Shown here: positions 20,658 to 23,039 of the stretch, one piece after another
Layout of the letters: the number at the start of each line of letters is the position of its first letter
How positions within the stretch are numbered: position 1 is the first letter of the stretch
IMG/VR virus record: IMGVR_UViG_2563366946_000012
Length of the DNA stretch: 37,467 nt
Origin: a virus
Taxonomy: Duplodnaviria > Heunggongvirae > Uroviricota > Caudoviricetes
Reading direction: 5' to 3' (one strand)
Program-made: the position numbers and the translations under genes
Notes under the pieces: generated by a model
What the model saw: only the letters and a program-made list of their open reading frames with translations
The model's database searches: none
What the model was told of the DNA's origin: nothing

Positions 20658-20968
20658 TATTCACTCCAGTACTTTTCCGGGCGGGCAATACCCGGACCAC
20701 ATTCCACGGTGTATTCCACCAGGTCTACGCCGAGGCGGGTCAGGTCAGCAAACCAGTCGCCAGAAGGTTTTTTCTCCAGATCAACCATTTTACGGTCAGC
20801 CAGATAATCCAGTTCGCGGCGCAGTTCCAGCGGTGTGGTGTCCGGGTAGATGGCACGGGACACATCCAGCAGCAGCGTCTCGCTGGCGGTGTAAGGGCGG
20901 GTCTTGTTCAGGGCAACCAGCAGACTCCAGCGCAGGGATTCGCGGCGTACCCGGGTAATATCGACCAT
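20657..20968 (-). CDS. Hypothetical phage protein (Mu gp26 position)
   Basis: 103-aa ORF between the lysis cassette and terminase genes. Confidence 0.4.
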   Translation of the reverse strand: MVDITRVRRESLRWSLLVALNKTRPYTASETLLLDVSRAIYPDTTPLELRRELDYLADRKMVDLEKKPSGDWFADLTRLGVDLVEYTVECGPGIARPEKYWSE

Positions 20969-21294
20969 TATTGACCTCCGGTATTGCGGTACTGCTGTAC
21001 CACTTCCAGTTTGTTATAAAGCGCGTCCAGTTTGGCCTCAATGACTGTCTGGCCACGGATATAATCCTCTCGACGGACATAATTCAGCGGTAAATCCGCT
21101 TTAAATCGCATAAATTCTTTTTCCAGCTCGCCCCAGTTGGAGGCGGATTGTTGCAGGGCCTGTTCAAGGGAGGCGAATCGTGCCGCCTGGCGTTCTTCTG
21201 TTTTACTGAACAACCATTTGGCGAGCCCTCCCACAAACCCCATGAAGGTGAGCAGAAAACTCACTACCGTCCAGAATTCAACCTGCAGTGTCAT
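20968..21294 (-). CDS. Membrane-anchored coiled-coil protein (Mu gp25 position)
   Basis: 108-aa ORF with N-terminal hydrophobic helix (WTVVSFLLTFMGFVGGLAKWLF) followed by a helical domain. Confidence 0.4.
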   Translation of the reverse strand: MTLQVEFWTVVSFLLTFMGFVGGLAKWLFSKTEERQAARFASLEQALQQSASNWGELEKEFMRFKADLPLNYVRREDYIRGQTVIEAKLDALYNKLEVVQQYRNTGGQ

Positions 21295-21941
21295 TTCTGT
21301 AATCCTTCCCGTTCATCCAGCAGCGCGTTTATCTGGTTCCGCCAGCGACGACATTGCCATGCGTTGTCGATGATGTTGGCGAGAACGTCACGCTGGGAGA
21401 CACCCGAATCGCGTAACCGGGTGTCAGTGGTTTCAGGTTGCCCGGTCGCTGTGCCAGAGCGGGTGCCAGTGGCGGCAACTGAGTCTGAATGACCGGTGTC
21501 GACGGATGCGTTGTCATACCCGAGTGCGGCGTTGTACTGGCGCACGAAACCGCGAGTAAACACGCACTCAATGGGATGACTCTTACCTTTTTCATCAATC
21601 CAGCGCTGTGTGACATCGTTAATTTGCCCCTGTAGTTGTTTGTTCCGGCTCTCCAGTTGAGCAATCTGCTCAAGATAACCGGCTTCAGCCCGCTGCCCGG
21701 CGGCCACCTGCTCCTGATACCGTCTGGCCCAGGCCCGCAGCGCAGCATTCTCAAGCGTTGCCTGCTCCGTTTTGTACGCGTCAAATGCTGACTGCAACTG
21801 ACTGAGCGCGGTATCACCGTCACGCTTTGCAGAGTCATGACCACTTCTGTATCCCATGGCATACAGGCCGACCAGAAAGGCATTGATAAGAATGGCCAGC
21901 AGAATGCCGCGCCACGGCAGCTTTTTAACCAGATGCCACAC
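21291..21941 (-). CDS. Inner-membrane spanin (Rz-like i-spanin)
   Basis: N-terminal TM segment (LPWRGILLAILINAFLVGLYAMGY) followed by a long coiled-coil periplasmic domain; directly downstream of the endolysin. Probable GTG start near 21941 rather than the ATG at 22043, which lies inside the endolysin gene. Confidence 0.5.
   Translation of the reverse strand: MWHLVKKLPWRGILLAILINAFLVGLYAMGYRSGHDSAKRDGDTALSQLQSAFDAYKTEQATLENAALRAWARRYQEQVAAGQRAEAGYLEQIAQLESRNKQLQGQINDVTQRWIDEKGKSHPIECVFTRGFVRQYNAALGYDNASVDTGHSDSVAATGTRSGTATGQPETTDTRLRDSGVSQRDVLANIIDNAWQCRRWRNQINALLDEREGLQK
21329..21595 (-). CDS. Outer-membrane spanin (Rz1-like lipoprotein) embedded in the +1 frame of the i-spanin gene
   Basis: Internal ATG in the 209-aa track ORF gives MKKVRVIPLSACLLAVSC… (lipoprotein-type signal with lipobox-like LAVSC) followed by a Pro-rich mature region (TPHSGMTTHPSTPVIQTQLPPLAPALAQRPGNLKPLTPG…). 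Confidence 0.45.
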   Translation of the reverse strand: MKKVRVIPLSACLLAVSCASTTPHSGMTTHPSTPVIQTQLPPLAPALAQRPGNLKPLTPGYAIRVSPSVTFSPTSSTTHGNVVAGGTR

Positions 21942-22659
21942 AACTGCTGCCTCCCCATGTGAGATATCGTGGTGCCAGTTCGCGCAGGATGCGCTGCGGA
22001 TAATGGCGGTTCTCCCGCCAGCTGGCCGCATTGCGTCCGGCATTCACCGTGGCGACATGTCCGAACCAGCGGGTGCTGTCCAGACCTTTCTGTGATGCAA
22101 GCCGCCTGTCCCGTTGTACCCAGCCCAGACCACCGTTATAGCCCGACAGTGTCATGGCCATACGCTCGCAGTCGTTGGCGGCGCTGACGCGCTGCCACAG
22201 CCAGCGGTCATAGCTGACCAGCGCCCGGATAGCCCATGCCGGATTAAACGGCTCACGACTGCTCAGCATCGGTATCAACTGGCTTATCCAGTCGGCAGTG
22301 GCAGGCATGAACTGCGCCAGTCCCTGAGCGCCAGCCGGCGAGACCGCATCAGGTCGCCAGCCGCTTTCCTGATGCAGTTGCGCGGCGAAATCGGCCACCG
22401 GCGCAGACAGTCCCCATTCAAGCCGGGCATTACGGATCACATCATCGCGATACTGCAGCGCAGCCTGCGGGGGCTGCGCTGCGCATGCCTGGCTGAAAAA
22501 GCCGCCACACCAGAGCAGCCAGACAATCACCAGGTTGCCAGCAAGCTGCCACCAGAAGCTGTATTTATCGTTACGTGGTTCTCCGTGTCTGATGGCGGTT
22601 ACGCCCAGACCAAAGGCGAACAGAATAATGAGGGTGATTTGAGGCCAGTTCATGGTCAC
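21925..22659 (-). CDS. Endolysin, soluble lytic transglycosylase (SLT) domain with N-terminal signal-anchor (SAR-type)
   Basis: Contains …QLHQESGWRPDAVSPAGAQGLAQFMP…, the catalytic-Glu block of SLT domains; N-terminal hydrophobic segment WPQITLIILFAFGLGVTAI. Confidence 0.8.
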   Translation of the reverse strand: MTMNWPQITLIILFAFGLGVTAIRHGEPRNDKYSFWWQLAGNLVIVWLLWCGGFFSQACAAQPPQAALQYRDDVIRNARLEWGLSAPVADFAAQLHQESGWRPDAVSPAGAQGLAQFMPATADWISQLIPMLSSREPFNPAWAIRALVSYDRWLWQRVSAANDCERMAMTLSGYNGGLGWVQRDRRLASQKGLDSTRWFGHVATVNAGRNAASWRENRHYPQRILRELAPRYLTWGGSSCVASG

Positions 22660-23039
22660 AGTCCTGTTGCCACAGCCAGACAGACCGCTGCAACAATCAG
22701 TGCACGGCGGATTAACGCAGCAGAAAATACAAGGTGAAGGCCGGTCTGCACAGGGAAACGCCCTTCAGCCATCAGCCTGTCTTCATGTTTCAGGTACTGA
22801 CCGGGACGGGCTTTGGGGAAGAGCGAACGGTCAAGCCAGTAACCCAGCACTGCTGCCAGCGTGATAAGTGCCAGCTTGTAGATCACAACAGGCAACTGCT
22901 GTGGCGAGACCAGAGCGATGATGCCCAGCAACAGCACTGAGGTCAGCAGCCAGCCGCTGAGGCGAGGTTTTTTAACAGGGGGAATGAATTTTTTCAGGTT
23001 TTTCATGTGTGTCTCCTCGTTTGGTGGAGACAGCATCAC
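22656..23039 (-). CDS. Putative holin/pinholin (first gene of the late operon)
   Basis: 127-aa ORF (GTG start in track; internal ATG giving MKNLKKF… near 23006) with 2-3 predicted TM helices, overlapping the endolysin start. Confidence 0.5.
   Translation of the reverse strand: MMLSPPNEETHMKNLKKFIPPVKKPRLSGWLLTSVLLLGIIALVSPQQLPVVIYKLALITLAAVLGYWLDRSLFPKARPGQYLKHEDRLMAEGRFPVQTGLHLVFSAALIRRALIVAAVCLAVATGL

Follow-up and report, generated by a model that had tools for sequence, protein, structure and literature searches.

A probable embedded Rz/Rz1-like spanin pair, with an unannotated nested lipoprotein gene, in the lysis cassette of a transposable E. coli prophage

The described lysis systems closest to the locus analysed here are those of the Pseudomonas phages B3, JBD25, JBD18 and JBD67, whose spanins have been catalogued as embedded two-component spanins (Kongari et al. 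2018, PMC6139136). Phage Mu likewise has a two-component spanin, formed by gp23 and gp23.1 (Chamblee et al. 2022, PMC9239132). In the window, by which we mean the whole 37,467-nucleotide stretch of DNA that was analysed, an i-spanin gene carries within its +1 frame a second open reading frame (ORF) for a Pro-rich lipoprotein. Very probably, the two constitute an embedded Rz/Rz1-like two-component spanin among the lysis genes of an E. coli prophage of the transposable (Mu/B3/BcepMu-like) type. The core reading of an initial annotation of this DNA, an embedded spanin pair of the Rz/Rz1 type, is upheld by the PHROG 1403 assignment, the transmembrane (TM) segment, the lipobox and the conservation described below.

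The genes of the cassette (Table 1) follow one another in the order holin, SLT endolysin and spanins, succeeded by packaging genes resembling Mu gp26, gp27 and gp28, and their stop and start codons overlap. Among 5426 complete E. coli genomes, 638 carry the cassette, which also occurs in prophages of many Enterobacterales genera. A scan of the cassette for promoters and terminators returned nothing beyond shuffled expectation. The prophage is inserted inside sslE, with a single prophage end lying in the window, and decayed copies of the locus (L014 and L023) are known from symbiont genomes. Both observations would fit a cryptic, non-inducible prophage whose genes are intact, the spanin pair being without present function in this strain. 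We regard such a state as quite improbable, given that no damage was seen in any ORF examined for lysis, packaging, transposase or repressor, that the cassette is 89-98% identical to its counterparts in PhiKM and KP12, both of them isolated phages, and that purifying selection acts on both frames across genera. The two decayed loci are the only ones that have lost the Cys of the nested gene or gained stops.

Table 1. Positions of the lysis genes and associated motifs in the window
Feature	Position	Strand	Details and evidence
108-aa protein with N-terminal TM segment	20968..21294	minus	phrog_462; gene order
i-spanin gene	21291..21941	minus	216 aa, 651 nt; PHROG 1403, RefSeq, GTG with Shine-Dalgarno (SD) motif, hydropathy, AlphaFold2
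Shine-Dalgarno GGGGAGG of i-spanin	21950..21956	minus	8 nt upstream of GTG; within the endolysin gene's 3' end
Putative o-spanin gene	21329..21616 (or ..21595)	minus	lies wholly within the i-spanin gene, frame +1; unannotated
Candidate lipobox L-A-V-S-C of o-spanin	21542..21556	minus	PROSITE PS51257; Cys25 in the long form, Cys18 in the short form
SD-like AGGGG of o-spanin	21627..21631	minus	10 nt upstream of ATG 21616
SLT lytic transglycosylase endolysin	21925..22653	minus	PF01464, 1.1e-14; phrog_669, phrog_5479; alternative start GTG 22659
Holin	22656..23006	minus	116 aa, 2-3 hydrophobic segments; PF13272 Holin_2-3, 7.6e-41; phrog_1528, 8e-54; RefSeq 'putative holin'

The outer gene was initially given the span 21291..22043, which is the longest stop-to-stop reading of its frame. 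This placed the 5' end 102 nt, or 34 codons, too far upstream, where it overlaps the endolysin gene. A longer i-spanin with its start at ATG 22043 is excluded because eight of the 15 GTG-bearing loci have an in-frame stop just upstream. Read from the sequence, the start is GTG 21941: the same 651-nt gene is annotated in RefSeq and in phage PhiKM, and the GTG with its SD motif (GGGGAGG or GGGGGGG) recurs at 15 of the 19 related loci inspected, the tblastn-derived start having fallen elsewhere than at the GTG and SD motif in the remaining four (L008, L013, L016 and L018).

The product matches PHROG 1403, 'Rz-like spanin', with an E value of 4e-92 over nearly its whole length (residues 3-216 on positions 4-212 of the 212-position profile), while other Rz-like PHROGs match it weakly; the identical protein, at the same coordinates, is named 'lysis system spanin subunit' in RefSeq (WP_000264665.1). 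A single hydrophobic stretch spans residues 8-31, with K6 and K7 before it and a Kyte-Doolittle peak of 2.45. In the AlphaFold2 model, a helix at residues 10-118 (pLDDT 76-89) and a second at residues 183-215 flank a region, residues 144-177, in which pLDDT is below 50. These data predict a single N-terminal TM anchor at about residues 10-31, with the remainder of the protein forming a periplasmic helix, a disordered linker and a second helix, and they agree with the N-terminal TM segment ascribed to the outer protein at first inspection. A periplasmic Cys is present in at least one subunit of 507 of the 528 known two-component spanin systems. Here it is supplied by the i-spanin, whose Cys126 is invariant in 23 of 23 aligned sequences and whose Cys197 is kept in close relatives; the mature o-spanin has no periplasmic Cys.

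The nested ORF occupies i-spanin codons 109 to 205 of 216, or 0.50 to 0.95 of the outer gene's length (L), its stop codon (21329-21331) lying 38 nt before the outer stop. Since it falls wholly inside the i-spanin gene, in the +1 frame of the same strand, the embedded Rz/Rz1-type architecture first proposed holds, and the nested position fits the typical span, beginning at 0.4-0.5 L and ending at 0.9-1.0 L, in which about 70% of embedded spanins reportedly fall (PMC6139136). The start codon is ambiguous, with 21616, 21598 and 21595 as the candidates. The peptide quoted in the initial annotation, MKKVRVIPLSACLLAVSC..., reads from ATG 21595 (MKKVRV...) and has 88 residues. Seven codons upstream, ATG 21616 (MSHSAGLMKKV...) would give a prolipoprotein of 95 residues and is kept in 19 of 19 homologous loci, and TTG 21598 is an alternative between them. 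A purine-rich motif (AGGGG, AGAG, GAGG or GGAGA) is located 9-12 nt upstream of this conserved ATG in each of the 19 loci.

On the validity of the lipobox in the internal ORF, named at the outset as a point that could refute the reading, the outcome was favourable by the PROSITE rule PS51257, applied with a script for which lambda Rz1 and Mu gp23.1 served as positive controls, both of which pass. The 88- and 89-residue forms pass, the MKKV start included; the 95-residue form fails one heuristic of the rule, having no Lys or Arg among its first seven residues. In every homolog at least one start form passes, with the same Cys each time, and this Cys is present in all intact homologs, having been lost only in the decayed locus L014. 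An earlier Cys (LSAC; Cys19 in the long form, Cys12 in the short) was considered as the lipidation site and rejected: it would leave too little hydrophobic region, violates the position rule and is absent in B3 and JBD25. The mature protein, starting at the lipobox Cys, would comprise 71 residues, of which 11 are Pro, in keeping with the Pro-rich region noted originally, and 20 are Ser or Thr. Ala at position +2 predicts sorting to the outer membrane.

That the nested frame is under protein-level selection is established decisively by its conservation in sequence comparisons. Every intact locus has the +1 lipoprotein ORF, across at least 12 genera and down to 41% i-spanin identity, and the lipobox Cys, an LPPL..RP..PLTPGY core, the ATG and the SD-like motif are kept in 19 loci. 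In close relatives, the proportion of synonymous differences (pS) in the i-spanin frame drops about five-fold, from 0.49 outside the overlap to 0.10 inside it, and each of the 136 locus pairs compared, which are phylogenetically non-independent, has its lower value inside. Over codons 151-180 the conservation of the +1 frame surpasses that of frame 0, both among close relatives (0.95 versus 0.85) and among all sequences (0.85 versus 0.72). The +1 translation outscores frame 0 in 45 sliding windows of the i-spanin gene, as opposed to 0 of 456 in four neighbouring genes, and the i-spanin gene is the only one among those compared in which the +1 translation is better conserved than the annotated frame. 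The conserved o-spanin core overlies the i-spanin's disordered, variable linker, and the conserved parts of the i-spanin overlie the signal peptide and tail of the o-spanin. The 19 loci, the drop in pS and the superiority of the +1 frame show the internal frame to be conserved in homologs, a point whose failure would have refuted the initial annotation.

It might nevertheless be argued that the nested ORF is untranslated. Synonymous-codon shuffles left a +1 frame as long or longer in 5-44% of cases for seven of the eight genes tested; for the window's own i-spanin gene the figure was 0.5% (23 of 5000). As +1 openness is about as expected in seven of eight genes, ORF length was dropped as evidence for the nested gene. 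Under a loose rule, lipobox-like N-termini also occur in six further ORFs when the window is translated in all six frames; on this basis, about 0.03 chance hits would be expected in a gene of i-spanin size. Moreover, non-synonymous differences too are lower in the overlap, as would result from a younger recombinant block. Against these points stand the better conservation of the +1 peptide than of the i-spanin peptide in codons 151-180, with no comparable signal in the control windows, the persistence of Cys, core, ATG and SD-like motif down to 41% i-spanin identity (and of a lipobox Cys and a related core in B3), and the confinement of Cys loss and stops to decayed prophages. An untranslated ORF is therefore very improbable, and we infer that the o-spanin is expressed and lipidated and that it enters a complex with the i-spanin.

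A translated lipoprotein could still act independently of the i-spanin, for example in the outer membrane, conferring exclusion or serum resistance in the manner of lambda Bor or Cor. Outside the B3 family, no characterised o-spanin resembles the nested protein in sequence, and a disordered Pro-rich sequence is uninformative on function. Yet it is without exception encoded inside an Rz-like i-spanin gene, over the canonical 0.5-0.95 L, in a late lysis operon and directly after the endolysin, and no other o-spanin candidate was seen beside the i-spanin, a protein that, from lambda genetics, is not known to function alone (PMC6139136). Independent action is the least probable of the readings considered, and a partnership between the two products is preferred.

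As anticipated at the outset, the nested gene has been missed by gene callers. It is absent from the RefSeq and GenBank annotations checked and, by exact look-up of both start forms, from a collection of 15 billion proteins. A protein database search with the o-spanin yielded six matches, all of them frameshift or assembly chimeras or truncated calls, and tblastn against phage records matched only three near-identical phages; more distant o-spanins were located by way of i-spanin homologs. The i-spanin itself is mislabelled elsewhere as 'lipoprotein', 'OmpH family' or 'hypothetical'. The main value of these results lies in annotation, in that the set of lysis genes in this prophage family becomes complete once the nested gene is added; the locus also offers a clean, well-sampled example of constraint shared between two overlapping frames. 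General knowledge of spanins is unchanged by this pair, which is an ordinary embedded spanin of a known family, its sole unusual feature being that the nested gene is missing from annotations.

The other components of the cassette were described initially as a SAR-type endolysin and a pinholin, and neither designation was established. A SAR endolysin has a single weakly hydrophobic, Gly/Ala/Ser-rich, uncleaved N-terminal TM domain directly before the catalytic domain. The SLT enzyme of the window begins instead with two hydrophobic segments, at residues 2-24 (peak 2.18) and 37-54 (peak 1.85), or 5-21 and 33-57 in another delimitation, in which Gly, Ala, Ser and Thr make up only 28-30%, and a conserved A-x-A signal-peptidase-like motif follows the second segment, before the catalytic domain; in JBD25 the same two-segment module is free-standing, as a separate 52-aa gene. 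Judging by this N-terminus, Sec export of the endolysin is plausible. A pinholin, for its part, is a small holin with two TM segments, the first a SAR domain, that makes holes on the nanometre scale. The protein encoded here is a Holin_2-3 member with two to three hydrophobic segments, and hole size is unreadable from sequence.

On the other side of the spanins, the ATG of the 108-aa protein overlaps the i-spanin stop (ATGA). The gene takes the position of those for Mu gp25 and JBD25 gp29, the DUF2730 releasin. PF10805 is matched by gp25 (2.5e-13) and gp29 (4.6e-9); the window protein gave no match to it at E values up to 10, nor did 22 other aligned homologs at E values up to 1, and hhalign against DUF2730 returned a probability below 2%. 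Membership in DUF2730 was rejected on sequence, with position and N-terminal TM topology alone in common. Two homologs of the protein carry the UniRef name 'DUF2730'. One could imagine that the SLT endolysin is held at the membrane by its two-segment module and that the membrane-tethered phrog_462 protein, translationally coupled to the spanin, controls its release as a releasin analogue unrelated in sequence to DUF2730; we consider this rather unlikely, but, if true, phrog_462 would give Mu-like phages a second and independent releasin family.

The mechanism proposed for the spanin pair rests on architectural analogy because neither product shows similarity to lambda Rz/Rz1 or Mu gp23, no Pfam or NCBIfam model scored above threshold for either, and a PDB sequence search found no relative. 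By analogy with lambda, the two products would associate via their C-terminal regions, forming a periplasm-spanning complex, with i-spanin dimers probably held by Cys126 (and Cys197). Until the holin has fired and the wall has been broken down by the SLT endolysin, the peptidoglycan mesh would keep the complex caged; once freed, the complex may fuse the inner and outer membranes, removing the last barrier to virion release.

The likeness to lambda Rz/Rz1 is one of organization. Both systems pair a type II inner-membrane protein of helix, linker and helix with a lipoprotein gene that is nested, in the +1 frame, within the distal half of its gene, both have a Pro-rich, presumably unstructured mature o-spanin and a periplasmic Cys in the i-spanin, and both lie directly after the endolysin. 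They differ in length, the lambda i-spanin having 153 residues against 216 here and the mature o-spanin 41 against 71, and the window o-spanin lacks both the penta-proline run and the mature Cys of Rz1. Single-pair BLASTP gave E values of 0.018 for Rz and 0.13 for Rz1, which are not significant, and for want of significant pairwise similarity neither lambda Rz/Rz1 nor Mu gp23 was accepted as homologous. Mu, also a transposable phage, shares the order endolysin, spanins, small TM protein and gp26/gp27/gp28, but its gp23 belongs to PHROG 214 rather than 1403, its o-spanin is overlapped, running well beyond the i-spanin stop, and it employs a muramidase SAR endolysin and no holin, in place of the SLT enzyme and Holin_2-3 holin encoded by the window element.

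Correspondence is closest with the B3 family. The B3 Rz-like spanin matches the same PHROG 1403 profile (3.8e-75), and the i-spanins of B3 and the JBD phages share about 30-33% identity with that of the window. In B3 (33% identity), the +1 frame again contains a Pro-rich lipoprotein ORF, 40% identical to the window o-spanin (E 7e-6); this ORF has a lipobox Cys and a Pro-rich core of related sequence, and the o-spanin start region is unalignable. The B3-family and window o-spanins have in common a PP.L..RPGPPP.LTP.Y core and, following the lipobox, C-A/G-T/S-T-T-P. Those of B3 and the JBD phages possess an extra periplasmic Cys that the enterobacterial ones lack, and B3 and JBD25 have an extra ORF of roughly 70 aa between endolysin and spanin. 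In RefSeq the B3 o-spanin ORF runs 7 nt past the i-spanin stop, making it marginally overlapped rather than embedded. The spanin family therefore mixes embedded (enterobacterial, JBD25) and marginally overlapped (B3) members, a combination within one family not seen by Kongari et al. (2018, PMC6139136). The cassettes themselves are ordered alike, with a Holin_2-3 holin, an SLT endolysin, the spanins, a TM protein and gp26/gp27/gp28-like genes in B3 and the JBD phages as in the prophage described here.

The window is a segment of the Escherichia coli chromosome carrying a transposable prophage of the Mu/B3/BcepMu-like kind, in which a Mu-type transposase, a transposition protein, a repressor, a portal, a tape-measure protein and a Dam methylase are also encoded. 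All of its lysis and packaging genes lie on the minus strand, and overlaps of 1-4 nt between neighbouring cassette genes resemble those of a translationally coupled operon. A 2.2-kb stretch around the spanin locus shows 100% identity with several complete E. coli genomes and is found in 638 of the 5426 complete E. coli genomes; its identity is 98% with Escherichia phage PhiKM and 89% with Klebsiella phage KP12. The right end of the prophage falls at about 34980, and from there to 37467 the minus strand matches, at 100% identity, the sslE gene of other E. coli strains, which encodes the lipoprotein metalloprotease SslE. Since the sslE ORF in the window ends after 839 codons, insertion of the transposable prophage appears to have truncated sslE.

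Lysis and packaging genes of the prophage, in cassette order
Feature	Coordinates	Strand	Position and family match
Holin	22656..23006	-	First; PF13272 Holin_2-3, 7.6e-41
SLT endolysin	21925..22653	-	Second, after holin; PF01464
i-spanin (outer ORF)	21291..21941	-	Third, after endolysin
108-aa transmembrane protein	20968..21294	-	Fourth, after i-spanin
Mu gp26-like protein		-	After 108-aa protein gene
gp27-like small terminase		-	After gp26-like gene; PF11985
Large terminase		-	Last, after small terminase

The initial annotation had placed the outer ORF of the spanin pair at 21291-22043, which is the longest stop-to-stop reading; the gene itself starts at GTG 21941, with GGGGAGG 8 nt upstream. 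The identical 651-nt gene is annotated in RefSeq (WP_000264665.1, 'lysis system spanin subunit') and in PhiKM, M-W is the N-terminus of all aligned i-spanin homologs (23/23), and, of 19 related loci inspected, 15 have the GTG with its Shine-Dalgarno motif, an in-frame stop lying directly upstream in eight of these 15. The product matches PHROG 1403 ('Rz-like spanin') from end to end (4e-92) and by hydropathy has a single N-terminal hydrophobic segment (residues 8-31), in agreement with the membrane-anchored i-spanin first proposed. An AlphaFold2 model built from 23 homologs predicts a continuous helix (residues 10-118), a low-confidence segment (144-177) and a further helix (183-215), which is the layout published for lambda Rz (PMC6139136), an anchor followed by two coiled coils with a linker between them. 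Cys126 is invariant and Cys197 is kept among close relatives. The protein is frequently mislabelled: PhiKM, KP12 and some RefSeq and UniRef entries call it 'putative lipoprotein' or 'lipoprotein' (the public records concerned are PQ738613.1, OM835952.1 and several RefSeq genomes), while the name 'OmpH family outer membrane protein' has been given to one homolog and 'aldo-keto reductase family protein' to another. For the i-spanin family all of these labels are name errors.

Nested in the +1 frame of this gene, as had been recognized at the outset, is a lipoprotein ORF that stops at 21329, 38 nt ahead of the outer stop, and whose product reads MSHSAGL-MKKVRVIPLSACLLAVSC-ASTTP... Along the i-spanin gene it occupies 0.50 L to 0.95 L, the same inner-gene range as in approximately 70% of embedded spanins (PMC6139136). 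The start of the 95-aa long form, ATG 21616, is made from the i-spanin Asp codon GAT and the G of the following Val codon, and is kept in all 19 loci, where a purine-rich motif precedes it by 9-12 nt; the start originally chosen, ATG 21595, is missing from four distant loci. The long form falls short of PROSITE PS51257 on one heuristic, a Lys or Arg among the first 7 residues, and the 88/89-aa forms pass fully. The same script passes lambda Rz1 and Mu gp23.1, two o-spanins with experimental validation that served as positive controls. Every homolog has at least one form that passes, always at the same Cys, which bears out the lipobox claimed for the internal ORF. The mature lipoprotein is identical for all start forms and Pro-rich, as had been stated, with 11 Pro and 20 Ser plus Thr among its 71 aa. 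Its +2 residue is Ala or Ser and not Asp, which by the established +2 rule retains lipoproteins in the inner membrane. The conserved core of the o-spanin shares its bases with the disordered, variable i-spanin linker, and its signal peptide is overlain by the invariant i-spanin block DVTQRWIDEKGKSHPIECVFTRGFVRQYNAALGY.

When synonymous codons were permuted in eight genes with the i-spanin protein held constant, the +1 frame was open for at least the observed length in 5-44% of shuffles for seven of the eight and in 0.5% (23/5000) for the window's own gene; ORF length, not in excess of chance for most of these genes, was dropped as evidence for a nested gene. A loose lipobox rule, applied to the six-frame translation of the window, also matches six other ORFs, among them that of SslE, a genuine lipoprotein. 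The decisive evidence comes from comparison of 20 loci drawn from one-genome-per-species contigs, together with the phages (i-spanin identity 82% down to 41%; Pantoea, Buttiauxella, Erwinia, Mixta, Trabulsiella, Limnobaculum, Apirhabdus, Serratia, Pectobacterium, Brenneria, Dickeya and Symbiopectobacterium). Conservation of the internal frame in homologs, whose absence would have refuted the first proposal, was found across this whole range: no intact locus lacks a +1-frame ORF at this position, and each encodes a hydrophobic leader, a lipobox (AVSC, AASC, VASC, LASC or LVSC), the sequence C-(A/S)-(S/N)-T-T-P and a conserved LPPL..L(A)..RP....PLTPGY core. Only two loci depart from this pattern, both of them visibly decayed prophages. 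In Mixta mediterraneensis (locus L014) an insertion of about 2 kb of DNA interrupts the i-spanin gene and the lipobox has Tyr in place of its Cys; in Candidatus Symbiopectobacterium (L023) there is an in-frame i-spanin stop (PIE*VFT) and the o-spanin leader is damaged. A poly-A-run frameshift lies at the i-spanin start of Erwinia tracheiphila (L008).

Among close relatives, the median of synonymous differences in the i-spanin frame is 0.49 over codons 1-107 versus 0.10 over codons 109-204, and all 136 pairs from all groups have the lower value within the overlap, these pairs not being phylogenetically independent. Over i-spanin codons 151-180, conservation of the +1 translation exceeds that of the i-spanin (0.95 versus 0.85 in close relatives; 0.85 versus 0.72 in all loci). 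As a control, 30-codon sliding windows were moved along four other genes of these loci (holin, endolysin, 108-aa and gp26-like); an alternative frame was more conserved than the annotated one in 0 of 456 windows, as against 45 windows of the i-spanin gene, all of them over the nested ORF. What the comparison shows, at the level of sequence, is two conserved overlapping coding frames with the predicted topogenic signals of a periplasm-facing pair, one for the inner and one for the outer membrane, in a late lysis operon.

The expectation that gene callers miss the nested gene proved correct, as it is unannotated in RefSeq, PhiKM and KP12. Searching 5.8 billion protein clusters with the o-spanin returned six matches only, all frameshift chimeras or truncated calls, and neither start form is present in a 15-billion-sequence collection in which the i-spanin occurs on at least 1000 contigs. 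The i-spanin half was already recognized by RefSeq. The spanin pair is of a known kind; its o-spanin member is newly recognized.

Upstream, a SAR-type SLT endolysin and a pinholin had been proposed. The SLT enzyme and the holin stand on their family matches, but nothing shows the holin to be a pinholin, and what the endolysin has is a signal for export or anchoring that differs from a textbook SAR domain. Its two hydrophobic segments (phrog_5479; 28-30% Gly/Ala/Ser/Thr) are separated by the charged loop RHGEPRNDKYS, and a conserved A-x-A motif follows the second (ACA, ARA, AQA or AHA; AKA in Pseudomonas phage B3). Comparison of this N-terminal module with L026:1170-1954 and L004:966-1760 (L004 being B3) places it as a fusion to the SLT enzyme in B3 and the enterobacterial prophages, whereas JBD25 encodes it as a stand-alone ORF of 52 aa, and the SLT enzyme that comes next there has a signal peptide of its own (MKRLLTLGLLGLLSAC...). 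In three Pectobacterium/Brenneria-type loci its place is taken by a single Leu-rich N-terminal segment. The export signal shows gene fusion/fission polymorphism. Pseudomonas Mu-like SLT endolysins have been described as SAR type (Chamblee et al. 2022, PMC9239132), and SAR-like behaviour is thus possible for the endolysin of the window.

Downstream, the start of the 108-aa protein overlaps the i-spanin stop (ATGA). The protein belongs to phrog_462, where it is labelled 'lipoprotein', and is without a lipobox. It sits in the slot of Mu gp25 and JBD25 gp29 (DUF2730, releasin), with which it has in common an N-terminal transmembrane segment and a helical cytoplasmic domain. PF10805 matched neither the protein nor its 22 homologs and profile comparison was likewise negative; a DUF2730 assignment was rejected on this lack of detectable homology, although two homologs carry that name in UniRef.

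By analogy with lambda Rz/Rz1 (PMC6139136) and Mu (PMC9239132), the i- and o-spanin would form a periplasm-spanning complex held in check by the peptidoglycan; after the holin has fired and the wall has been removed by the SLT endolysin, it would fuse the inner and outer membranes. Pairwise comparison detected no sequence similarity between the window pair and lambda Rz/Rz1, nor was any detected between its i-spanin and Mu gp23, so the pair probably works like Rz/Rz1 without belonging to that sequence family. Among known families, the nearest is found in Pseudomonas phages B3, JBD25, JBD18 and JBD67. Kongari et al. 2018 (PMC6139136) list it among embedded spanins, and it has the same cassette order, a common PHROG, an i-spanin identity of 30-33% and, in B3, a +1-frame lipoprotein homologous to the o-spanin (40% identity, E 7e-6). 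The B3 o-spanin ORF (2266-2574 of locus L004, from NC_006548) ends 7 nt past the stop of its i-spanin (1956-2567). Kongari et al. 2018 (PMC6139136) reported no family mixing embedded and overlapped architectures; the o-spanin is technically overlapped in B3 but embedded in JBD25 and the enterobacterial prophages, and a single spanin family thus straddles the two architecture classes.
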